DNA of 64,000 bases, taken from assembly GCA_029547225.1 (NCBI GenBank), contig JAKPPS010000056.1:25356-89355 (forward strand), given 5' to 3'. Made by a program: the position numbers and the translations under genes. Below the pieces are notes generated by a model, which made no database searches, had not been told where the DNA came from, and saw only the letters and a list, made by a program, of their open reading frames with translations. This DNA is from a bacterium (lineage in GTDB: Bacteria; Patescibacteriota; Dojkabacteria; SC72; WJKH01). Position 1 is the first letter of the stretch, and each line of letters begins with the position of its first letter. Shown piece after piece: positions 33,831 to 51,111 of this stretch.

Positions 33831-36800
33831 TTAATAAGGTTTATACCCAAGTTCTTTTACATATGCATCAGAATCAACACCAAAGAATTTACTAGAAATA
33901 TAAAGATATCTTGGATCATAAATAACAACAAATGATGGATAGCTATTATTATCAAGCAGCTGTAAGGATCTTTGCCACAACAAGCCATTAGAATCTCCGC
34001 CCAAAGAATAAACCGCACCTTGGATTTTTATTCCGTCTACAGTTACCTGACCAATATCTGTACGTGGGAAGATTATATGTCCTCCAGCAATAAAGACTCC
34101 GTTTAAACTGTCAAAACTAGGTACACCACCTGAACTTTTATATGTTCCTTCTTCGATAGAAATATTTCCTCCAGCTAAGAATATGCAACCATTGATCTTT
34201 GGGGTATCTGTTTTGGTAATGTCAGGGTTAATTGTGATATTACCATTTGTTTTGATCAGCGCTTGACGATTACAATTTATTGCATTCACATCTAAATTTC
34301 CACTCGCGTTTATTACACATGCATTCGATTCGCTTAAACAGATATTTGAGACATCCCCACTAATCGATCCCACACTTAAGTTATATGAGTCAATAGTCCC
34401 ACTTGCGATTTCTTTATTTACTTGAGAGAGTAGTTGTTGATAATTAATAGACGTATTCGAATACGATACAAGTGTATACGGATCATATTTATTACCTCGA
34501 ACAACATTTTGAACAATAGTTGAGCCGTTTATTAAGCCTAATTCAGTAGTTATTTGTGTATTTGAACTGTTTGAACCATATGGATCAGCAAAATAAGTTA
34601 TAGCAGGATCTGGTACTTTAATAGGGCTTTCAACATCTCCAGCAGAGTAGAGTAACCCACCTTTTGTAGCGAACCAACTTTCTCCAATTGCAAGATTATT
34701 ACTATTATCAGTAAAAGAACCCATGTTACAGGCATTGTCAGTAGCTTTGATTTTGACTCCAAGATTTCCTTCGTTAATAACTCCTATGTTTAACTGCTGA
34801 GTACCAGAATTAACAGCTCCCTTTGCCCATATTGGAACAGGGTTAAAATCTTCACTTCCAGTCGAAGCATTAATATACGGAACAGTCACTGAAACATGAG
34901 GTTCAGCTGAAACTTCGGTAACAGTATGCTCATTTGGTTCATATGAGCTTCCAAACAAACCTACCAAACCAATAGATGACTTAACTCCAGAATTTGTATC
35001 AGTTAGGCTCCACTGGTACGATACAGTATTTTTATCTACAATCGTTGGGCCTGTTATAGTCGATGTTGGAGCAGTAAAATCAATTCGATAATCACCCTTA
35101 TCGTTCCATGTTGTTTGTCCAGGACCTGATGCAGTATCCCTTGCAAAACCAAGTAAATTTGTTACACCCTCCGGCATATTTGCGCCAAAACCAACAGTAA
35201 AAACATAAGTACATGTGTTACCTGAACAATCTGTACTAGCTAATTTCCAGCGGTTTTGCGAGCTATCTTGGCTTTCACTCGGATTCCATATTTCTGAGCT
35301 ATTATATTGATCATTATTTGAAGATGCTGACGAGAGTGCTGACATGATCATACCGGTACTTCCTGCACTCATACCAGTATTAGAAGGTAACTCCCAGTCA
35401 TAATTCCACGTATCATTACTAAAATCGTTAAGATATGTTAACCCATATAAAGCCATACTATTATTTCCGACAGCATTAGCTGAAGGAAGAGCTGTCGTAG
35501 TTGAACCCGTTGCAGTAAGGTTACGATTTATTGTAAACATTTGCCCATTAACTTTTATTGAATCTATATAAAGATTTCGATCCCCAGAAGGCACTGTAGA
35601 TACATAATAATCATTAGGAAAACGTATAGTTATTTGATTGGGCCGTAAAGCTGTATTATGAGTATATTGATATACACCTCCACCAGAAGTGATACCAGTA
35701 GAATTAGCAGCCCCAGTATTAACAGATTTTATAGTTTTCACGAGGTTACCATCTATCAGTATCTCCATATTAGCAAGCTGAGAAGCAGTACCCGAATTAA
35801 GGGTTGCTGCATAAATTTTGATTTCCGTTCCCTTGTGAGCTAGAGCATGTACCGATGTTTTAAGATCACTCCCCAAGGATGTAGTGTCATCGATCCACAG
35901 CCCTGCCCACAAAATATCACTAGGCCCATCATTATCCGTAACTGTAACAGTAAAATCTCTCGGATTATTATCATTACTTGCACCGCAATCTGTTCCATTA
36001 TCATAATTGGGTAACGAGCCAGAAAGACCACTATTAGGTGAGACTGTAACAGTTGGCTTACTGTTGATTTTAAAATATCCAATCAACTGATTTGAGCACA
36101 TGCCATCTGTACAGATAAACGAATCAGTACATTGGCGTAGTGGGGCATACTGTGTAGTCACTGTATATGATCGTCCTTCAGTTTTATTTATACTTGACCA
36201 GTTTGGAGAATAATACCTTAACCGAGTCCCCTCAGATGCTTCACTATCCAAACCCGCAACAGCAGTTAAACTTGTGCCTACTCCTGTGACGGCATAAGAA
36301 GCTAATAAACCACGAGAGTTTGTAGGAAATTGAGAGCTATTTGCGACATCAACCATGAAATATAGATTAGTTGCTAATTCTTCTGCATTTATTAGTGTCG
36401 GTTTTGAGGGATCGGTCGACAATTTTATACAAGCTTCTTGATTTGGACTACATATCGAAACATATTCTGGTGTTGGCGCTTTTGTGACTGTAGGATTTAC
36501 ATAACAAGCAGCTCCTGATGTTGTACAGGGACCACAATCGTTCTGTCCACTGCAAGATGACGAAACTGGGCTGCATCCTGCCCAACCACTCTGATATCCC
36601 AAGGGTTGAGTGAAGCTATATCCCGCACTACATGTTGGAGTACATGCTTCACACCCATTAGAATATGTTCCAGAACAACATGGTGTTGTATTGTCACATG
36701 GAGGACATAATACATCTACTTTGTCACCTGGAGCCCAACAGTAGTCACTTCCATTATCCTTACTCGTGCCACATCTATTTGGAACAGGAGATGAAAGAGT

Positions 36801-37436
36801 ACAATCTAATTTCTCACAACCTCCTGTTCCCTCATTTCTTCCAAGAAGACAATAATTACTTTCACCACAATCACCGACACAGGCACAGCTATATTCTGTA
36901 CGTGTCTTTACCCAACTACATCCTTTGTTAGAAGCTCTTTGACATTGATCCTTTTCTTTAATGTTTTTACAAACTGTTCCTGCTTTACAAAATGGAGCTT
37001 TCCAAGTACAGCCATCTGTTTTTTTACATTCTGGTTCCGTTGTTGCTCCAATACATGAATCGCCACAATAACCTTTTTCAATTACATTCCATTTACAAGC
37101 TTCATAATTTTCACAATCATTCTTATTTGTAAAATTTTTACACTTTGGACCAAAAATATTAATATCTTCTGACCTATACCAACAATTACCATCTTCACAC
37201 CCTGCATTAACATCCATAACAAACAAATCAGATATGATATTTCTAGAAGAATTGCTAGCTATATCAGTAGATAAGAACTTTATATCCGAAGAAGTAAAAT
37301 CAATAGAATTTGCGGGTTTATTAAAATAGCTATTTAGAAATAAGGAATAGAAGACTGACAGTAGTACAACAATTGCAGTAAAAAGGGTAAAAAACAGTTT
37401 ATTTCCAATTGTAATTTTTAATTTTCGTTTATTCAT
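33831..37436 (-). CDS. Giant exported orphan protein (1201 aa) with a Cys-rich N-terminal module; candidate pilus-associated adhesin
   Basis: It has an N-terminal signal anchor (LFFTLFTAIVVLLSVFYSLFL) and about 35 Cys in residues 75-345. A possible carbohydrate-binding-like segment contains DRNLYIDSIKVNG, and the C-terminus is Gly/Asn-rich and beta-helix-like. The gene sits inside the T4P operon. Confidence 0.65.
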   Translation of the reverse strand: MNKRKLKITIGNKLFFTLFTAIVVLLSVFYSLFLNSYFNKPANSIDFTSSDIKFLSTDIASNSSRNIISDLFVMDVNAGCEDGNCWYRSEDINIFGPKCKNFTNKNDCENYEACKWNVIEKGYCGDSCIGATTEPECKKTDGCTWKAPFCKAGTVCKNIKEKDQCQRASNKGCSWVKTRTEYSCACVGDCGESNYCLLGRNEGTGGCEKLDCTLSSPVPNRCGTSKDNGSDYCWAPGDKVDVLCPPCDNTTPCCSGTYSNGCEACTPTCSAGYSFTQPLGYQSGWAGCSPVSSSCSGQNDCGPCTTSGAACYVNPTVTKAPTPEYVSICSPNQEACIKLSTDPSKPTLINAEELATNLYFMVDVANSSQFPTNSRGLLASYAVTGVGTSLTAVAGLDSEASEGTRLRYYSPNWSSINKTEGRSYTVTTQYAPLRQCTDSFICTDGMCSNQLIGYFKINSKPTVTVSPNSGLSGSLPNYDNGTDCGASNDNNPRDFTVTVTDNDGPSDILWAGLWIDDTTSLGSDLKTSVHALAHKGTEIKIYAATLNSGTASQLANMEILIDGNLVKTIKSVNTGAANSTGITSGGGVYQYTHNTALRPNQITIRFPNDYYVSTVPSGDRNLYIDSIKVNGQMFTINRNLTATGSTTTALPSANAVGNNSMALYGLTYLNDFSNDTWNYDWELPSNTGMSAGSTGMIMSALSSASSNNDQYNSSEIWNPSESQDSSQNRWKLASTDCSGNTCTYVFTVGFGANMPEGVTNLLGFARDTASGPGQTTWNDKGDYRIDFTAPTSTITGPTIVDKNTVSYQWSLTDTNSGVKSSIGLVGLFGSSYEPNEHTVTEVSAEPHVSVTVPYINASTGSEDFNPVPIWAKGAVNSGTQQLNIGVINEGNLGVKIKATDNACNMGSFTDNSNNLAIGESWFATKGGLLYSAGDVESPIKVPDPAITYFADPYGSNSSNTQITTELGLINGSTIVQNVVRGNKYDPYTLVSYSNTSINYQQLLSQVNKEIASGTIDSYNLSVGSISGDVSNICLSESNACVINASGNLDVNAINCNRQALIKTNGNITINPDITKTDTPKINGCIFLAGGNISIEEGTYKSSGGVPSFDSLNGVFIAGGHIIFPRTDIGQVTVDGIKIQGAVYSLGGDSNGLLWQRSLQLLDNNSYPSFVVIYDPRYLYISSKFFGVDSDAYVKELGYKPY

Positions 37437-39158: not shown

Positions 39159-39548
39159 TTACTTGCTTCCTAGATATTTCTCAATATTACTAATCAATTC
39201 CTCGGAAGAGATTTCTGTTTTGACAAAATACTCTGAAGCACCTAAAGTCAAGCATTCTTTAACAACTTTATCACTTACCATATTGGTTAAAATCACTACA
39301 GGTACACCATCATATTGATCCGGATGAGATTTGATTTGTCTCAATACTTCAATACCATCAATACCTGGCATCATAAGATCTAGCAATACTACTGCGACTG
39401 AGGATTTATTCTCTTCGATAAGCTTTAAACCTTTATATCCATCCGTAGCACCATATACCGTTGCTCCAGTTGACTCAATAACTTCAGTATAAGAGTCAAG
39501 CAAATCTTTCTCATCTTCAATAATAATCACAACTTTATTTGGATCCAT
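39159..39548 (-). CDS. Single-domain response regulator receiver (CheY/PilH-like)
   Basis: The receiver residues are in order: acidic pocket (IIIEDEKD), phospho-acceptor context VVLLDLMMPGIDG, Thr (VVILTNM) and Lys (YFVKT). There is no output domain. Confidence 0.85.
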   Translation of the reverse strand: MDPNKVVIIIEDEKDLLDSYTEVIESTGATVYGATDGYKGLKLIEENKSSVAVVLLDLMMPGIDGIEVLRQIKSHPDQYDGVPVVILTNMVSDKVVKECLTLGASEYFVKTEISSEELISNIEKYLGSK

Positions 39549-44759: not shown

Positions 44760-45977
44760 TTATCCACCAAAAGCGCTCGAGAGACTAAACATCGGCATGT
44801 AAACAGCAAGTGCAATAAATCCTACAATAACACCCATTATTATAAGCATTACAGGTTCAAGTAGGGTAGAGAGGGTATCAGACATAACATCAACCTCTTC
44901 TTCATAATATTCTGATAATTTGCCCAAAACCTCATCAAGTTTACCAGTCTCTTCACCAACTGCTACCATCTGACTCACAATCAAAGGAAATGCCGTAACA
45001 CGAGAGAGTGGGAGAGCAAGCGGAATACCTTTTTCGATATCTTTTTTAGCATCTTGTACGCCAAACCTAAAAACGAGATTTGTTAGAGAATAAGAAGTTA
45101 ATTCAAGAGCAGACAATATTGGTAATCCACTTTTCATCAATAAAGATAGTATTCTCGAGAATTGCGCTATTTGAATATTTGAAATAAGCTTACCAAAGAC
45201 AGGAATCTTTAAAGCAATTTTGCTAAACATCAATTTCCCAGCTGGAGTATCAGTATAAACCTTAATAACAATACCTATCACAGCGGCAAAGATAAGAAAT
45301 ACCCACCAATAAGTGACAAAAGTATTACTCATAGCAATAACTGCTTTTGTAACCCATGGAAGTTCTGCACCTGCATCATCGAACATCTGTTTTATTGAAG
45401 GGACTAAGACAACCATCAACAACACAACAACTGTAATAACAACTACCAAGATAATAATTGGATATGTGGTAGCAGACTTAATCCTTTGTTGTACTTTACT
45501 GTTTTTCTCAAGTTCTATAGCTAATCTTTCAAGTATCGTATCAAGATTACCACTTTGCTCTCCAGCATCAATTAGGTTTATCGTAATTGTATCAAAGACA
45601 TCAGGATATTTTGCTAATGACGCAGATAAACTCAGACCTCCCTCGACATCAGATAATACTAAACCGAGTACCTTTTTAAACCTAGGATTTTGCGCTTGCT
45701 CACGCAAGATCTGTAAAGCTCGTGGCAATGCCAAACCTGCTGATATCATTGTTGAAAGCTGTCGCATAAAAACAACTTTATCCTTCATCGGAACTCCACC
45801 GATATTTATTTCCTTTAGTTTATCCAGATTAAAACCAATATCTTCTGCAACTTCGACTATAGTCAGATCCTTCTTTTGTAAAGTGTCAACAACTTGATTG
45901 CTATCTTTTGCCTCCATACTTCCTTTTACGATAGCACCTTCCTTTGTTCGTGCAGAATATTTAAATTTTCTTGCCAT
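44760..45977 (-). CDS. pilC: Type IV pilus platform protein PilC (GspF family)
   Basis: Duplicated T2SSF domains, three TM segments, and blocks such as FMRQLSTMISAGLALPRAL and FSRILSLLMKSGLPILSAL. Confidence 0.9.
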   Translation of the reverse strand: MARKFKYSARTKEGAIVKGSMEAKDSNQVVDTLQKKDLTIVEVAEDIGFNLDKLKEINIGGVPMKDKVVFMRQLSTMISAGLALPRALQILREQAQNPRFKKVLGLVLSDVEGGLSLSASLAKYPDVFDTITINLIDAGEQSGNLDTILERLAIELEKNSKVQQRIKSATTYPIIILVVVITVVVLLMVVLVPSIKQMFDDAGAELPWVTKAVIAMSNTFVTYWWVFLIFAAVIGIVIKVYTDTPAGKLMFSKIALKIPVFGKLISNIQIAQFSRILSLLMKSGLPILSALELTSYSLTNLVFRFGVQDAKKDIEKGIPLALPLSRVTAFPLIVSQMVAVGEETGKLDEVLGKLSEYYEEEVDVMSDTLSTLLEPVMLIIMGVIVGFIALAVYMPMFSLSSAFGG

Positions 45978-46144: not shown

Positions 46145-49100
46145 CTACCCCTTAAGTAATCTAGAAATCTCTTCAGGATGGACTGCATAAGCCATAGCTT
46201 TTTCCATAGTAATAAGATTTTCTCTAACCAGTGATACTAAAGCTGATTCTAACGAAATCATGCCAATATCTGAGCTTGTACCTATCACATTGTCCAACTG
46301 ATGGGTTTTACCTTCACGAATCAGGTTTCGTACAGCTGGATTTGCAATCATAATTTCACAGACGGCTTTACGACCACCCTTGTCCAATGGAATCAATCTC
46401 TGACCTATTATTGCTTCTACCACATTTGCAAGCTGAGCTCGAATTTGCGATTGTTGATTTTCTGGGAATACATCGATAATCCTATCAACCGTTTGAGAAG
46501 CACTATTAGTATGCAATGTTGCAAATACCAAATGGCCTGTTTCTGCCAAAGTTATCGCTGAAGAAATTGTCTCATAATCACGCATTTCTCCGACAAGTAT
46601 AACATTAGGATCTTCACGCAAAGCACTCTTTAGAGCTATCTGCCAAGAGTGAGTGTCATCTTGCACTTCTCTCTGAGATATCAAAGCTTTAGAAGGAGGG
46701 AAAACATATTCTATTGGATCTTCAATTGTAAGGATGTGACATTGTCTAGTTAGATTTACTTCTTGGATTATTGAAGCAAGTGTAGTACTTTTACCATGTC
46801 CAGTAGGTCCAGTTACTAAAACTAATCCCTGAGATAATTTTGTTAATTGATGGAATATTGGAGGTAAGCCTAATTCGTCTATCGTACGAATCTTCGAAGG
46901 TATCAATCTGAATGCTGCCGCCATTGTCTGTTGCTGAAAATATGCGTTGATCCTAAATCTCCCCATATCTTTGTATGCATATGCAAGATCAATTTCTCGA
47001 TTAACCTCGAGTCTGTCTCGTTTATCTTCGCTCAATACAGGCAAAACTAACTCAGCAATGTTTTCCTCAGTAATGATTTCATCTGATACAGGTACCAATG
47101 AGCCATCAAGCCTTATCATTGCAGGATAACCAACATTTACGTGGAGATCTGAGGCATTTCTCTCGATAACCATCGCAAGCAACTGTTCTATACTATATAT
47201 ATAATGTTTACTAGATTTAATTGGCTTATTTTCTTGAGTAATATTTGTATTAACCATTCCGTTTGAACCAGCTCCTAAGCCATTATCCGTATTTTGCTGT
47301 ACAGGCGATGAATTCTCAACAACCTGAGTAGATTGAATCGGTTGATTAGTGCTATCCGCTTGAGCACTAACTGCCTGATTATTAATTTCAGCTACAGTAC
47401 TATCTACTTTATTTGCTGATACATCACCAACACTATTAATGTCACTTGCCACGACTGTATTCGTATTTTCCACAGGAGTACCAGCAGTCAGATTTTCAAA
47501 TGGCAAATTAGTTACTTGAACATTTGGATCTACAGTTGGACTCGCTTCCACCGTCGGACTTATTGAAGGTGGTGCCACAGCAGTATCCCCTGAGACACTA
47601 GCTGTAACAGTATTTACTGGATCCGATTGACTAACAGCACTTGCTCCTTGGACTGCATTATCCTGACTGGTAGCACTTACTACTTTCGTCGGATCAACAA
47701 AATCTGCAACTGGAGTCACAGTTGGAGCGATAACAGGTGTACTAACCGCTCCAGTGCTCGTTAGTGAAGTACTCATATTATTATCCATAATTTTTTCTCC
47801 TAATTTATCTAATTTATTATTTTGAATGCTTTGTGCAAATTCATTATATTCTTCAACAGGTTTTGTAACAGGCTGCTGACTCTCTGTTGAAGCAATCGTT
47901 TCTTTTTTTTCAATCACTGGCATACCTGGGATTGAGGACAAGGGCAAATCTGATGTTGTCGCATTATCTGATTGTTCTTCAATGCTTGTTTTAGTATCTG
48001 AGTGATCTTCCTTTTCGGCCTGTGTATTAATATCTATCTTACCATCAGAAGTATTATCCTCTTCAACAATATCTAATTCAGGTAATTGTATTTTTGTATC
48101 ATTCTTCTTTTCTGCAACTTCAGCCTTATCAGCATTATTTTTATCATCGCTTTGGGGTAATTCTTCCGCCTTCTCTTCGTCAGCTGTACCTTCAACTGTA
48201 AAGAATTGATCTCTAAGTTTTGCAAGTCTCTGTGCGAATTTCGACTGCTTCTTTTTCTTCTCTTTCTTATCGTTATCATCACTTAATTGAGTGCTATTTC
48301 CATCATCAGAAACAGTAATGTTTTGACTAACTTGCGAACTTATATTACTATTCCCAATACTAACACTATCCGCGTTTATTACATTGCTCGATTGAGTAGA
48401 AGCATTTACTGTAACCGTACTGGATGCAGGATCAGATAATTGCGATTGAGCTGAGATATCTGTTTTATCTTGAATACCTGTTTGGGTATCCTGTGCAATA
48501 CCGATATTGCGTGAAAGGGAGGGGGAAACGGTCTGTGAAACATTACTCTCGCTCGTCGATACTGGCTGTGAGGGCTGTGAAACATTGCTCTCACCTGTCG
48601 ATACCTGCTGTACGGACCGTGAAACATCTGGTAGATTCTCTGTCGAGATTACACTAGTCTGTGAAACAATATTATCTTGTCCTACCAAACCAACGTTTTC
48701 TTTCTTAATGTCCTTTTGTACGTTATCAGAGATCGCCGTTGTAAAATCTGGAGTTTGAGAAGGCGACTCAATTTCGTTTTCACCAGATTCAGACATTGTC
48801 GGCATACTAGCGTTTAATTTCGTTTGCTCGATCTTTTTACTTGCTAAGTCCATTATTTCAGATATTGTCTTATCATTATTAACAGCATTTTTTTGAGTTA
48901 TCGGCTTATTTTCATCTGACAAATCAGACTGTATTGTTGGTGAAATAGGCTGAGTCGGTGTGATTCCAATGGTAGGATTTATACTTGTTTGCGTATTCGA
49001 AACAGGAGATGCTTGCATAGATTGATCCACAACAGGAGATTGAGAGGATGAAGGAGTTGTCGTAGATACTTGAGCTACAGAAGGCGTTTGTGCAATTGGA

Positions 49101-49231
49101 ACTGACTGGTTATTCGTTACTGGCGGTACAGTTGAATTTACTTGAGTTGCAGTTGAAGATGAGTCAGTAGATACAGGATTAGTACCTGCAGGAGTTGCAC
49201 TAGGATATGTAAAATCTAAACTATTTCCCAT
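46145..49231 (-). CDS. pilT: PilT-type retraction ATPase fused to an N-terminal low-complexity extension of about 675 aa
   Basis: The C-terminal 350 aa carry Walker A GPTGHGKSTT, Walker B ILVGEMRD, His box GHLVFATLHT and the PilT-specific AVRNLIREGK. The N-terminal part is Ser/Thr/Val/Gln/Pro/Asn-rich, and the ORF stays open from 20 nt downstream of the pilB stop. Confidence 0.85.
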   Translation of the reverse strand: MGNSLDFTYPSATPAGTNPVSTDSSSTATQVNSTVPPVTNNQSVPIAQTPSVAQVSTTTPSSSQSPVVDQSMQASPVSNTQTSINPTIGITPTQPISPTIQSDLSDENKPITQKNAVNNDKTISEIMDLASKKIEQTKLNASMPTMSESGENEIESPSQTPDFTTAISDNVQKDIKKENVGLVGQDNIVSQTSVISTENLPDVSRSVQQVSTGESNVSQPSQPVSTSESNVSQTVSPSLSRNIGIAQDTQTGIQDKTDISAQSQLSDPASSTVTVNASTQSSNVINADSVSIGNSNISSQVSQNITVSDDGNSTQLSDDNDKKEKKKKQSKFAQRLAKLRDQFFTVEGTADEEKAEELPQSDDKNNADKAEVAEKKNDTKIQLPELDIVEEDNTSDGKIDINTQAEKEDHSDTKTSIEEQSDNATTSDLPLSSIPGMPVIEKKETIASTESQQPVTKPVEEYNEFAQSIQNNKLDKLGEKIMDNNMSTSLTSTGAVSTPVIAPTVTPVADFVDPTKVVSATSQDNAVQGASAVSQSDPVNTVTASVSGDTAVAPPSISPTVEASPTVDPNVQVTNLPFENLTAGTPVENTNTVVASDINSVGDVSANKVDSTVAEINNQAVSAQADSTNQPIQSTQVVENSSPVQQNTDNGLGAGSNGMVNTNITQENKPIKSSKHYIYSIEQLLAMVIERNASDLHVNVGYPAMIRLDGSLVPVSDEIITEENIAELVLPVLSEDKRDRLEVNREIDLAYAYKDMGRFRINAYFQQQTMAAAFRLIPSKIRTIDELGLPPIFHQLTKLSQGLVLVTGPTGHGKSTTLASIIQEVNLTRQCHILTIEDPIEYVFPPSKALISQREVQDDTHSWQIALKSALREDPNVILVGEMRDYETISSAITLAETGHLVFATLHTNSASQTVDRIIDVFPENQQSQIRAQLANVVEAIIGQRLIPLDKGGRKAVCEIMIANPAVRNLIREGKTHQLDNVIGTSSDIGMISLESALVSLVRENLITMEKAMAYAVHPEEISRLLKG
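48533..48700 (-). repeat. Four tandem 42-bp (14-codon) imperfect repeats inside the pilT extension
   Basis: ctgtgaaaca... recurs at 48533, 48575, 48617 and 48659. It encodes units like QQVSTGESNVSQPS / QPVSTSESNVSQTV on the minus strand. Confidence 0.75.
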
Positions 49232-49251: not shown

Positions 49252-51111
49252 TTAATCTTTCGATACTCTCATAACCTCTTCTATAGTAGTTACTCCCTCG
49301 AGAGCTTTCAAGTACCCATCTTGTTTCATTAGTATCATGCCATTTTTTACACCTTCATTTTCAATATCCGAAGCCGTACTATTATCCATCATCATCCTAC
49401 CCATTGATTCCGTTATCGACATGACTTCAAAAATACCAATACGACCGGAATATCCAGTTCCATTACATCTATCACAGCCCTTACCCTTATAGAGATACAA
49501 TATTTGTTTACCGTCTGGAGTTACTTCTGGGCATTTAACATCTGTAGAACCACTTGGACCATCAGTATTTACTGGAGCTCCTGCCATAACAGCACTACCT
49601 ACAGTGTTTCCAATTTTCGATTTTTCGGCCTTACAGAAATCCGTAGCGTATTTATAAATATCAAAATTCTGCAGATTAGAAAGCACCTTCTTTATATCCA
49701 TTATCTCCGCCTCAGTTGCAGGTATAGCTTCACGACAGTATGGACAAATACGTCTGGGCAATCTTTGTGCAACAACAAGACGCAATGTCGAAGCCAATAG
49801 ATACGGTTCAATACCCATATCTATAAGTCTCGGTACTGCCGTCGCCGCACTATTTGTGTGAAGAGTTGATAAAACTAGGTGTCCAGTCAAAGAAGCTTCT
49901 ACTGCAAGTTGAGCCGTCTCACGATCTCGAATCTCACCAACCATAACGATATTTGGATCTTGCCTCAATATTGAACGAAGTCCGGTAGCAAAAGTCAGAC
50001 CGACATCTGGATTTATCTGAACCTGATTCACACCTGGAACCCGTATTTCAACAGGATTTTCAAGGGTAATAATATTTACCTTTGGATCATTTAATTTTCC
50101 CAAAGTACCTGCTAAAGTACGAGTCTTACCACTACCAGTAGGGCCCGTAATTAATATGATGCCATTTGTAGCTCTTATCGAATCCATATATATTTTATAA
50201 CCATTACCTCGTAAACCAGATGTTTCAAGAGCTGGAACTTCATTTCCAGATTCGAGTATACGCATAACTATTTTTTCTCCATACACGGTCGGTAGAGTGG
50301 AAACACGAATATCAACCTTTCGATCTCCGGATTTTAAAGTAATCCTACCATCTTGAGGTATTCGCTTTTCATCAATTTTAAGATCAGCCATGATTTTGAT
50401 TCTAGATATAACCGAGCTTGTTAAATGTTTTGGTAATGCCAATTTCTCCGTCAGAATACCATGTATCCTAAGTCGTACTCGCAATTTACCCTCCATCGGT
50501 TCGATATGAATATCTGAAGCATTTGATTTGATTGCAAATTGAAAAATCGAATTTACAATCCTCGCAATAGGAGCATTCTGCAACGATACATCATCAAGTG
50601 AGCTTGCACTTGTACTATCTAATTCCGTTACTGGCCCTTCAATATCCTCAAGAGCTTCGCTAACCTCTGTAGAAATTACTTCACCAGATTTCCTCTCCAA
50701 AATTGCATTTACTGCTTTTTGAGTTGAAATATGAACCACCAGGCGCGAACCAAGAGGCAACATATGCTCGATTGCCTGAATAGCCTGGATATCAAATGGA
50801 TCTACCATCGCAATTTTAATTTCATTACCTTCCTGTGAAAAAGGTACAGCATTGTAGGTCTTCAAACTATCGACTTTAATTAAGCCGAATACTGTATCTG
50901 GAATATTAATATTTAATAAATCAGCATAAGGGATATTAAATAGCTCTGATTTTACCTGAGCAAGTACGATGTCATCAACAATACCCTGTGACAACAAGAG
51001 TTGTTCTTCGCCTTGACTTGACTTAATAAGATCTACGCGAAGTTTATCCGCGGTGATTTTATCAATTTTGCCTTGTTTTTCAAGAAAATCTATTATTTTT
51101 GTGTTTCCCAT
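49252..51111 (-). CDS. pilB: Type IV pilus assembly ATPase PilB (GspE family)
   Basis: N-terminal T2SSE_N-like domain, Walker A GPTGSGKT, MVGEIRD, GHLVLSTLHT, and a tetracysteine CPYC...CDRCNGTG interrupted by an insertion. Confidence 0.9.
   Translation of the reverse strand: MGNTKIIDFLEKQGKIDKITADKLRVDLIKSSQGEEQLLLSQGIVDDIVLAQVKSELFNIPYADLLNINIPDTVFGLIKVDSLKTYNAVPFSQEGNEIKIAMVDPFDIQAIQAIEHMLPLGSRLVVHISTQKAVNAILERKSGEVISTEVSEALEDIEGPVTELDSTSASSLDDVSLQNAPIARIVNSIFQFAIKSNASDIHIEPMEGKLRVRLRIHGILTEKLALPKHLTSSVISRIKIMADLKIDEKRIPQDGRITLKSGDRKVDIRVSTLPTVYGEKIVMRILESGNEVPALETSGLRGNGYKIYMDSIRATNGIILITGPTGSGKTRTLAGTLGKLNDPKVNIITLENPVEIRVPGVNQVQINPDVGLTFATGLRSILRQDPNIVMVGEIRDRETAQLAVEASLTGHLVLSTLHTNSAATAVPRLIDMGIEPYLLASTLRLVVAQRLPRRICPYCREAIPATEAEIMDIKKVLSNLQNFDIYKYATDFCKAEKSKIGNTVGSAVMAGAPVNTDGPSGSTDVKCPEVTPDGKQILYLYKGKGCDRCNGTGYSGRIGIFEVMSITESMGRMMMDNSTASDIENEGVKNGMILMKQDGYLKALEGVTTIEEVMRVSKD

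Follow-up and report, generated by a model that had tools for sequence, protein, structure and literature searches.

Canonical PilT proteins comprise ~340-380 residues and start 0-6 residues before helix alpha-1, whereas the pilT gene in the stretch of DNA analysed here (64,000 nucleotides of contig JAKPPS010000056.1 from a Dojkabacteria genome, referred to as the window) places 675-680 residues ahead of this helix, which raises the question of whether such an extension is really made and what a pilus motor would do with it. A preliminary description of the locus had proposed a 1028-aa ORF with the PilT core at its C-terminal end, and an extension beginning 20 nt past the pilB stop; both features were recovered (Table 1), the spacer measuring exactly 20 nt and the ORF opening with ATG. 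The gene belongs to a pilus cluster on the minus strand (30053-51111) that encodes pilB, pilT, pilC, a pilin, pilD and minor pilins, followed by pilM, pilN and pilO. No alternative genetic code is needed to read it, the frame being free of TGA, TAA and TAG. Shine-Dalgarno-like sequences precede just 1-2 of the 48 ORF starts in the window, so that their absence before the pilT ATG is normal here and uninformative for or against this first start.

Table 1. Features of the pilT locus, with positions numbered along the window
Feature	Position	Strand	Remarks
pilC platform protein	44760..45977	-	405 aa, T2SSF x2; directly downstream of pilT
Full pilT ORF	46145..49231	-	1028 aa plus stop codon; ATG start
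PilT core	46148..47191	-	aa 681-1028; Walker A, Asp box, Walker B, His box, AVRNLIREGK
Pre-core segment SKHYIYS	47192..47212	-	aa 674-680; counterpart of the family G-K-Y-P-Y preceding helix alpha-1
ATA codon	47198..47200	-	aa 678; start of the 351-aa NCBI model of the gene (P0006)
N-terminal extension	47207..49231	-	aa 1-675; predicted intrinsically disordered, net charge -46, without family match
Internal ATG	47255..47257	-	aa 659; only canonical start shortly upstream of the ATPase domain; candidate alternative start, not conserved
Charged central block	47792..48277	-	aa 319-480, 40% charged; low-charge S/T/N/Q/P/V-rich blocks on either side
M2-like amphipathic helix with K-rich lead-in, KKKKQSKFAQRLAKLRDQFFTVE	48191..48259	-	aa 325-347; AlphaFold2 helix 326-340
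42-nt tandem repeat, in frame	48533..48627	-	2.3 copies; encodes VSTGESNVSQPSQP / VSTSESNVSQTVSP
Strain-variable patch	48803..49129	-	aa 35-143; dS 0.33, dN 0.12, omega 0.37 vs L001
Motif M1, LDFTYPS	49199..49219	-	aa 5-11; conserved hydrophobic-x-Y-P of Dojkabacteria long PilT
pilB-pilT spacer, TTTAATTTATTGCTGCCTAA	49232..49251	-	20 nt, from pilB stop TAA (49252-49254) to pilT ATG; without Shine-Dalgarno
pilB	49252..51111	-	619 aa, MshEN + T2SSE; directly upstream of pilT, same operon

Judged by its sequence, the core is a complete PilT/PilU-family type IVa pilus ATPase and a predicted retraction ATPase. The NCBIfam model TIGR01420 (pilT_fam) scored 452 bits, well above its cutoff of 319, with model positions 2-343 of 343 lying on aa 681-1021, and the Pfam T2SSE match was confined to aa 678-955 of the 1028-aa protein. 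The catalytic motifs are Walker A (GPTGHGKST, 808-816), the Asp box (EDPIEY, 837-842), Walker B (VILVGEMRD, 877-885), the His box (HLVFATLHTN, 900-909) and AVRNLIREGK (966-975), a PilT-specific helix of the AIRNLIRE type, and the columns of all five are invariant in 63 homologs. Solved PilT structures aligned to aa 678-1026 with E values from 8e-102 (6OJX) to 5e-94, the canonical proteins of G. metallireducens (6OJX), Aquifex aeolicus (2EWV) and P. aeruginosa (3JVV) matching this region end to end, and in the AlphaFold2 monomer the core takes the PilT fold, with pLDDT of 70-96 in its N-terminal domain. No CpaF/TadA family model of NCBIfam exceeded its threshold (the TadA-family model scored 32 bits, its cutoff being 373). 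With TIGR01420 fully matched, all catalytic motifs present and the gene located between pilB and pilC, the protein agrees with canonical PilT; its size and the 680 residues before helix alpha-1 are an architectural difference that leaves family membership unaffected.

Several properties of the extension confirm it as a coding sequence and not a chance opening in the DNA. In-frame stops are absent from its 675 codons, compared with 25-93 in the other five frames and a mean of 46 (minimum 25) in 2000 shuffled versions, and the probability of the frame staying open calculated from base composition is ~1.6e-21; the earlier remark that the 2 kb upstream of the core is open beyond chance was well founded. 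GC content at the three codon positions (0.49/0.43/0.24) is similar to that of the core, and codon log-odds trained on the 25 other ORFs in the window reached +0.32 bits per codon in frame 0, being positive in 9 of 9 blocks of 75 codons and negative in every other frame. Compared with a 96%-identical sister strain (L001), the extension differs only in the patch of aa 35-143, to which the omega of 0.37 refers and which also contains the sole indel, an in-frame change of 30 nt or 10 codons; the omega of the PilT core is 0.03. Stop codons in this region of relatives had been named as a possible objection, and none was found, the extension being uninterrupted in eight related loci analysed as DNA and in ~100 homologous proteins. 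At the sequence level, the extension is shown to be under purifying selection. We infer from this evolutionary record that the extension is very probably translated as part of a single 1028-aa PilT, from the ATG 20 nt past pilB, as had been proposed; the open frame, the gene-like codons, the omega value, the in-frame indel and a conserved N-terminal motif, all of them indirect tests, agree on this point.

Three other accounts of the same DNA were weighed against a translated extension. According to one, the sole product is a PilT of canonical size, initiated at ATG 659 or at the ATA, TTG or ATG codons at 678, 684 and 687, and the 2 kb ahead would be an untranslated leader or an artefact of gene calling. 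The NCBI model of the gene is indeed a 351-aa protein (P0006), a PilT begun at ATG 659 would be 370 aa long, and 2 weak promoter-like matches (minus-strand 47406-47378 and 47319-47291) lie upstream of that codon. However, an untranslated leader is not expected to remain open for 675 codons (P ~1e-21), nor to display gene-like codon usage, an omega of 0.37 and in-frame indels, nor to keep motif M1 right after the first ATG when the linkers are otherwise unalignable. The NCBI start is moreover a non-canonical ATA, and those of 4 relatives (ATG, TTG, ATA and ATG) fall at non-homologous positions. An internal Met as the sole start had been named in the preliminary description as another possible objection; methionines before the core occur in relatives no more often than by chance and at unconserved positions, and no internal ATG before the ATPase domain is conserved among 56 non-redundant relatives. 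Promoter-like matches overall (28, against 25.7 expected from shuffles) are at chance level and therefore evidence neither for nor against an internal promoter. We consider this account very improbable. A combination of full-length tailed PilT and core-only PilT from ATG 659, which would produce mixed hexamers with fewer than 6 tails, is improbable to a lesser degree: ATG 659 exists, with plausible promoter-like hexamers upstream, and the rarity of Shine-Dalgarno sequences in this genome makes internal initiation hard to exclude by sequence, but the lack of conservation of that start and the chance level of the promoter matches speak against it as well. The likelihood that two genes were fused by a lost stop or a chimeric contig is negligible. 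The source is a metagenome-assembled genome, and nothing else was found in favour of such an artefact, whereas the same tail and core architecture recurs in independent ENA, JGI, Logan and NCBI assemblies, including the closed 1.04-Mb genome CP129478.1 (L086), the same long pilT is present in at least 4 other assemblies (P0001, from three ENA contigs; P0002, from a JGI contig and cut by the contig end), and an exhaustive profile search returned no stand-alone protein carrying the tail motifs M1 and M2.

Whereas the preliminary description had read the extension as an isolated peculiarity, the comparison makes it the longest known case of a trait found across Candidatus Dojkabacteria (WS6). Word-index searches were swamped by low-complexity words (5 matches for the full protein and 2 for the M1-M2 alignment), and a core-only homolog search together with an exhaustive profile search was used in their place. 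Extensions of about 120-520 aa are carried by nearly all close Dojkabacteria PilT homologs (518 aa in L006 and 351 aa in L007, for example), the window being the extreme at 675 aa, and most of the best 120 core homologs measure 460-640 aa. All these extensions start at an ATG shortly past pilB, with a gap of 20 nt in the window and of 20-89 nt in the 4 Dojkabacteria loci (L086-L089) in which NCBI lists a "short" PilT. Each of these 4 has an unannotated in-frame upstream ORF of 124-454 codons, reaching back to an ATG and bearing M1 plus M2 or M3. No loss of the tail was seen among the Dojkabacteria homologs examined as DNA. As a control, in ~70 other species among the matches listed, Saccharibacteria, Gottesmanbacteria, WWE3 and Parcubacteria lineages included, the frame closes 0-30 codons from the core and the start lies 0-6 codons before it. 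On this sequence comparison, the tail is specific to Dojkabacteria and missing from PilT of other phyla, other CPR lineages included, among the matches listed. Within Dojkabacteria the comparison shows that the tail is conserved as an architecture, along with its composition (in twelve relatives the extensions are unalignable, yet all are net acidic, with 1-3% aromatics and 7-18% proline), whereas its length is not conserved, ranging from 124 to 675 aa.

Two motifs recur in these tails. M1 is a hydrophobic-x-Y-P peptide. Of 102 long homologs, 85 carry it in their first 45 aa, compared with none of 5000 background windows; among non-redundant homologs the count is 45 of 56, and in 33 of these proteins the motif starts at aa 10-15. 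M2, with the consensus SPLQALAKKLxxLKDEFVEE, a K/E-rich lead-in and an acidic tail, occurs in most long homologs, scoring 20-37 bits in many, and in one of them (P0013) AlphaFold2 models it as a helix at aa 108-124 with pLDDT ~85. A profile covering M1 to M2, run against 1.84 billion proteins, found its matches exclusively at the N-termini of PilT proteins 626-786 aa long, and no free-standing protein with both motifs was retrieved.

In the window protein, the extension is S/T/V/N/Q/D/P-rich, as first described, and contains only 1.5% aromatics and 0.6% Arg. The disorder that had been suspected is what AlphaFold2 predicts: pLDDT stays below 50 over aa 1-673 except for a helix at 326-340. Neither Pfam, NCBIfam nor PDB sequences matched aa 1-677, and no hidden domain was found. 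NVSQ-type repeats are common to this protein and 2 homologs (P0003 and P0007). M1 is the only tail motif firmly present, its DFTYP being identical to that of L086 and P0016. Homology of the divergent helix at 326-340 to the family M2 is plausible, without statistical support: FAQRLAKLRDQFF (aa 332-344) pairs without gaps with LAKKLSNLKDEFV in MAFFT and BLAST alignments, and we downgraded the assignment because PSSM and HMM scores were no better than those of shuffles. M3 (LQDIIPGEKVPKAL) is not claimed for this protein, which has merely an "IPG" resemblance near aa ~434. The composition does not favour phase-separation-like clustering, given the few aromatic and Arg stickers and the net charge of -46.

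We propose that the PilT ATPase would be preceded, in one protein, by a disordered and net-acidic arm of ~675 aa, so that each subunit of the PilT hexamer would bear a flexible arm whose terminal peptide or helix would dock on a partner. The likeliest partner would be either a component on the cytoplasmic side of the pilus machine (PilM, PilN, PilC or PilB) or the PilT ring, and docking would keep the motor close to the base of the pilus or control when it engages, while the linker would drift freely in length and sequence by in-frame gain and loss of repeats. Tethering fits the anatomy of a motif on a linker, and a docking or tethering role is a real, if tentative, possibility, to which we give somewhat less than an even chance. 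The explanation taken as a whole, a translated long PilT with a docking or tether arm, is the one we lean towards.

Two further readings accept the tail and dispute this role. The tail could be largely functionless, low-complexity sequence expanded by slippage in which at most a short N-terminal motif is selected and the length of 675 aa is non-adaptive, and this reading, rather unlikely overall, draws on the wide variation of the linkers in sequence and length (124 to 675 aa), on the in-frame tandem repeats and strain-level indels, and on the polar low-complexity segments of many other proteins in the window (PilN, ~350 aa; the GyrA N-terminus, ~125 aa; a PPDK-like enzyme, ~326 aa), which suggest that extreme tail length may be tolerated drift and not adaptation. 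Against it stand an omega of 0.37, not ~1, even in the variable patch, the conserved composition of unalignable extensions, the conservation of M1 and M2 and their specificity for PilT N-termini, and the retention of the tail in every Dojkabacteria homolog examined as DNA. It is also conceivable, with a slightly lower probability, that the tail is autoinhibitory or regulatory, its F-x-Y-P peptide or helix folding back on the PilT ring, for example in competition with the similar Y-P-Y segment ahead of helix alpha-1; hexamer conformation or ATPase activity would thereby be gated until a partner or phosphorylation releases the tail. M1 resembles the pre-core G-K-Y-P-Y, short homologs (366-382 aa) have the Y-P-Y segment itself as N-terminal peptide (as in MTAQNQ...GYPYSMDYLL), and the tail is Ser/Thr-rich; in other systems, ATPase activity tended to rise when the intrinsically disordered region (IDR) of CpaF was truncated (PMC12019362) and a regulatory role was proposed for the C-terminal IDR of M. 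xanthus PilU (PMC13584747). However, the monomer models give pLDDT below 50 at M1, and the pre-core segment of the window protein reads HYIYS, not YPY.

Returning to the docking arm, PilT would not be the only component of this kind. In this genome PilN has an arm of ~365 aa, whose three basic FSKKK motifs precede the PilM-binding INLLP peptide of the protein, and long disordered arms on several components may organise the cytoplasmic face of the Dojkabacteria pilus machine, with the F-x-Y-P tip and helix of PilT as a new docking system that tethers the motor, an idea that we regard as speculative and unlikely to hold in full.

N-terminal additions are known on the same ATPase fold. The N1 domain of GspE binds GspL, and Thermus PilF bears N-terminal GSPII domains (PDB 6F8L); in our PDB search this PilF matched the core of the window PilT only. 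These additions and the MshEN domain of PilB, which the PilB of the window also has, link a motor to its machine or to signals and are functional analogues of the proposed tether, but they are folded and belong to assembly ATPases, whereas the addition described here is predicted to be disordered, contains short motifs and belongs to a putative retraction ATPase. Loss of the 79-aa N-terminal IDR of Caulobacter crescentus CpaF lowers pilus dynamics but not ATPase activity, and the authors of that study suggested that the region makes contact with the machinery (PMC12019362). As in CpaF class II, we deal with a putatively hexameric PilT/VirB11-like pilus motor with a lineage-restricted, predicted N-terminal IDR; CpaF is, however, a bifunctional member of a different subfamily, in which an IDR of ~79 aa is followed by a three-helix bundle, whereas the Dojkabacteria tail, known here from sequence, spans 120-675 aa with motifs of its own (M1 and M2), and the likeness, drawn by analogy, is functional only. 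M. xanthus PilU (MXAN_1995) has a lineage-conserved predicted C-terminal IDR of ~112 aa for which a regulatory or partner-binding role was proposed, and a longer N-terminus is mentioned for the PilT paralog MXAN_6705 (PMC13584747). These are likewise PilT-family proteins with predicted disordered terminal extensions conserved within one lineage, although their extensions are much shorter and unrelated in sequence, and that of PilU is C-terminal. The CpaF and PilU IDRs are the closest precedents.

For ultrasmall CPR bacteria, type IV pili are thought to play a central part in attaching to host cells and feeding on them. To our knowledge, no type IV pilus system has yet settled the question of how the extension motor and the retraction motor alternate at the base of the pilus. 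In reference annotation these genes are shortened to about 350 aa, in some cases by the choice of an ATA or TTG start, and "intergenic" gaps of 0.4-2 kb remain after pilB, so that the tailed PilT is hidden from annotation-derived protein sets. A retraction motor with six long flexible arms tipped by a conserved peptide would represent a natural experiment in motor recruitment, for which the DFTYP-type peptide and the helix are concrete candidates for partner tests. If the docking-arm reading is true, the retraction motor would be permanently tethered, which would constitute a new control of PilB/PilT exchange.

The reading frame of pilT opens exactly 20 nt after the TAA stop codon of pilB, within a type IV pilus gene cluster, and its sole recognisable domain is the C-terminal one. 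Pfam T2SSE matches aa 678-955, the NCBIfam model TIGR01420 (PilT/PilU family) covers aa 681-1021 over its entire length with 452 bits against a cutoff of 319, and PDB PilT chains align to aa 678-1026 (6OJX, E=8e-102). Walker A, Asp box, Walker B, His box and AVRNLIREGK were all found in this core, and aa 1-677 have no match in Pfam, NCBIfam or PDB. Judging by the names that its nearest homologs bear, the organism belongs to Candidatus Dojkabacteria (WS6), a lineage of the candidate phyla radiation (CPR). The long N-terminal extension (aa 1-675, the tail) that the preliminary description had noticed on this PilT is confirmed, with the core lying only at the C-terminus of a 1028-aa ORF. The pilus cluster also encodes a stand-alone response-regulator receiver domain (39159-39548, - strand) and a possible adhesin of 1201 aa (33831-37436, - strand) that contains a CBM60 carbohydrate-binding module.

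Features of the window, with blocks of the PilT tail given in residues of the protein
Feature	Size	Position	Strand	Remarks
Type IV pilus gene cluster		51111 to 30053	-	includes pilB, pilT, pilC
pilB (cluster)	619 aa		-	MshEN and T2SSE domains
pilT	1028 aa	46145..49231	-	ATG start
pilC, pilin, prepilin peptidase (cluster)			-	after pilT
Minor pilins (cluster)			-	three or four
Response regulator and two large proteins (cluster)			-	
pilM, pilN-like gene, pilO (cluster)			-	
pilN-like gene	546 aa	30856-32496	-	between pilM and pilO
GyrA	1025 aa	57322-60399	+	
PPDK/PEP-utilising enzyme homolog	1046 aa	9231-12371	-	
In-frame tandem repeat (pilT tail)	42-nt unit	48533-48627	-	
PilT tail block 1		aa 1-318		low charge, S/T/N/Q/P-rich
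PilT tail block 2		aa 319-480		40% charged residues
PilT tail block 3		aa 481-675		low charge, S/T/V/A/N-rich

The open frame of the extension is beyond chance: its 675 codons contain no in-frame stop, compared with 25-93 in the other five frames and a mean of 46 (minimum 25) in 2000 shuffled versions, and the probability of its staying open, calculated from composition, was about 1.6e-21. GC content by codon position (0.49/0.43/0.24) was similar to that of the core. With codon log-odds derived from 25 further ORFs in the window as training genes, we obtained +0.32 bits per codon for the extension in the reading frame (training genes average +0.24), with values above zero in all 9 consecutive blocks of 75 codons and below zero in every other frame.

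A sister strain was compared for selection at the protein level. Three independent ENA contigs carry its PilT (P0001, 1038 aa, 96% identity), flanked by pilB and pilC in the order seen in the window, and the differences between the two proteins are confined to two patches. One lies in the tail (aa 35-143; dS = 0.33, dN = 0.12, omega = 0.37) and includes the sole indel of that patch, of 30 nt and in frame; the other lies in the core (aa 817-871; 46619-46783, - strand), where many synonymous changes relative to the sister-strain locus gave an omega of 0.03 and a core dS of 0.14. The 515 codons separating them are identical in both strains, a mosaic that suggests recombination between strains. 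A further variant (P0002, 988 aa) only seems shorter: its contig breaks off 8 nt ahead of the called start, and the frame is open as far as the contig end. These comparisons show a single long ORF that is coding and under purifying selection, and they support the proposal that the upstream 2 kb would be translated as part of PilT.

Tails of this kind are widespread in relatives. Among the best 120 core matches (65-77% identity) most proteins have 460-640 aa, and therefore tails of 100-290 aa; a small number of entries, near 350 aa in length, come from NCBI (PGAP) models. We examined four of the latter as DNA (loci L086-L089), one of them in a closed 1.04-Mb genome. In all four, 393-1452 nt after pilB had been left without annotation, and this stretch stays open in the pilT frame, as an ORF of 124-454 codons whose ATG lies 20-89 nt past the pilB stop. 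NCBI placed the four starts on ATG, TTG, ATA and ATG codons that are not homologous in position. For the pilT of the window itself, the NCBI protein (P0006, 351 aa) begins at the ATA codon of aa 678 (47198-47200), and at locus L006, with a tail of 518 aa, the annotated 527-aa protein, for which NCBI chose an internal Met, is a truncation of an 870-aa ORF. Locus L007 has a tail of 351 aa, and an exhaustive profile search yielded further PilT proteins of 651, 730 and 786 aa. We found no stop codon upstream of the core in relatives, the frames being open in the loci examined. By sequence comparison, the long-tail architecture shows conservation across the Dojkabacteria lineage.

As a control we used the PilT loci of about 70 other species among the matches listed, including Saccharibacteria, Gottesmanbacteria, WWE3, Wolfebacteria, Yanofskybacteria and many non-CPR phyla. 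The frame in the matches listed shuts 0-30 codons ahead of the core, whose first helix (helix alpha-1) begins 0-6 codons after the start, with two exceptions: P/A-rich tails of 53-176 aa, unrelated in sequence, in a few Armatimonadota, and long open frames in two high-GC genomes, which are probably due to chance. The Armatimonadota extensions (L028, L032, L038 and L049; 53-176 codons, open and in frame) may be a separate instance of a disordered PilT N-terminus; two of them start MS(N/D)(D/Q)FSW, and the motifs M1 and M2 described below are absent from all four.

The Dojkabacteria tails share short motifs and are otherwise unalignable over most of their length. M1, a hydrophobic-x-Y-P peptide, occurs within the first 45 residues of 85 of 102 long homologs and in 0 of 5000 windows of 45 residues drawn at random from tail interiors; in the non-redundant set 45 of 56 have it, and in 33 of those 45 it begins at residue 10-15. 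The window copy is LDFTYPS (aa 5-11), with a core identical to that in L086 and the homolog P0016. M2 (SPLQALAKKLxxLKDEFVEE) is an amphipathic helix that follows a K/E-rich lead-in and runs into an acidic tail; many homologs score 20-37 bits for it, and AlphaFold2 predicts it in homolog P0013 as a helix at aa 108-124 (pLDDT about 85). A second subclade carries another motif, M3, LQDIIPGEKVPKAL. In the window, FAQRLAKLRDQFF (aa 332-344) aligns gap-free to the C-terminal half of M2 with MAFFT and BLAST, but the window tail scores no higher than its shuffled versions with the M2 PSSM and profile HMM, and we therefore call the region of aa 326-340 an M2-like helix of unproven homology. When an M1-to-M2 profile was searched against 1.84 billion representative proteins (E<=1e-3), only five matched, all PilT of 626-786 aa and all at their N-termini; the module therefore appears specific to PilT.

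The segment preceding helix alpha-1 reads G-K-Y-P-Y in most members and KHYIYS in the window. Ten short close homologs of 366-382 aa (P0019, P0031, P0057, P0060, P0063, P0076, P0084, P0097, P0116 and P0118) start MTAQ(N/D)Q... and reach (G/N)YPY(S/T)M(D/E)YLL after only 20-35 residues, so that the N-terminal peptide and the pre-core Y-P-Y are one element in them. The long forms resemble a duplicated tip joined to the core by an inserted linker.

That the first ATG is the real start is best supported by M1, a conserved peptide at a fixed short distance from it. A Shine-Dalgarno-like sequence precedes only 1-2 of 48 ORF starts in the window, so its lack at 49231 means nothing; many starts are instead preceded by TATAAT-like A/T-rich sequence, which together suggests leaderless or Shine-Dalgarno-independent initiation. 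A minor short isoform from an internal start is possible, canonical start codons close to the core being limited to ATG (aa 659), TTG (aa 684) and ATG (aa 687), but there is no sign of it as a main or conserved product: a Met falls within the 30 residues before helix alpha-1 in 17 of 56 non-redundant relatives, versus 39% expected from composition, at scattered positions with none conserved, and promoter-like matches within pilT are about as frequent as in shuffled sequence.

AlphaFold2, run with a 63-sequence alignment, predicted a folded core and a pLDDT below 50 for aa 1-673, with the helix at aa 326-340 as the only secondary structure of the whole tail, in agreement with the proposed disorder. 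The tail carries a net charge of -46, with 1.5% aromatics and 0.6% Arg, a composition that would not favour sticker-driven phase separation. In twelve relatives the tails are likewise net-acidic, aromatic-poor and proline-containing, though their sequences are unrelated. The 42-nt tandem repeat, together with NVSQ-type repeats common to the window tail and its closest relatives, points to tail growth by slippage.

We propose that the tail would be a flexible arm whose tip, plus the helix where present, docks on a partner, which would keep the retraction motor tethered to PilB or, on the cytoplasmic side, to the pilus machine. Alternatively, the tail could fold back onto the PilT ring and be autoinhibitory, given that the F-x-Y-P tip resembles the Y-P-Y segment preceding helix alpha-1 and that both coincide in short homologs, e.g. 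MTAQNQ...GYPYSMDYLL. The tail could also be a largely neutral low-complexity expansion with selection on the motifs only, a reading supported by the long polar low-complexity segments in other proteins of this genome. In the PilN-like protein, the canonical PilM-binding INLLPP peptide lies at aa ~373, not at the N-terminus, and the ~365 preceding residues are of D/E/K/T-rich low complexity and contain a basic motif three times (ILSIFSKKK, SIFSKLFKKK, GLGLFSKKK), making it a second cytoplasmic pilus component with a long disordered N-terminal arm. GyrA has about 125 acidic, polar residues ahead of the conserved N-terminal segment EEMRKNYLDYSMSVIVSRALPDV, no Met near the canonical start position, and a Pfam topoisomerase domain beginning at aa 153; the PPDK-like enzyme has about 300 aa of polar low complexity between PPDK_N (aa 45-351) and the mobile domain (aa 659-727). 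A crude filter on composition picked out at least one polar, low-hydrophobicity segment of 40 aa or longer in 22 of 47 window ORFs. The extreme length of 675 aa may therefore be tolerated rather than selected.

Disordered terminal regions on PilT-like motors have precedents in Caulobacter CpaF, whose 79-aa N-terminal IDR lowers pilus dynamics but not ATPase activity when removed (PMC12019362), and in Myxococcus PilU, with a 112-aa C-terminal IDR; Myxococcus MXAN_6705 has a longer disordered N-terminus (both PMC13584747). A CPR protein-family survey names PilT only as a component (PMC6744442), and in the full-text literature, with subscription papers incompletely covered, we found no account of an N-terminal PilT extension in Dojkabacteria or other CPR.

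Altogether, the window gene encodes a genuine PilT whose disordered N-terminus is exceptionally long and bears motifs; its anatomy is clear and testable, and we infer its translation from comparison. NCBI/PGAP models of Dojkabacteria pilT are systematically shortened to some 350 aa by starting at ATA, TTG or an internal ATG, leaving 0.4-2 kb of apparently non-coding DNA after pilB. The trait is found throughout the Dojkabacteria, hidden by reference annotation, and the window PilT is its extreme case.
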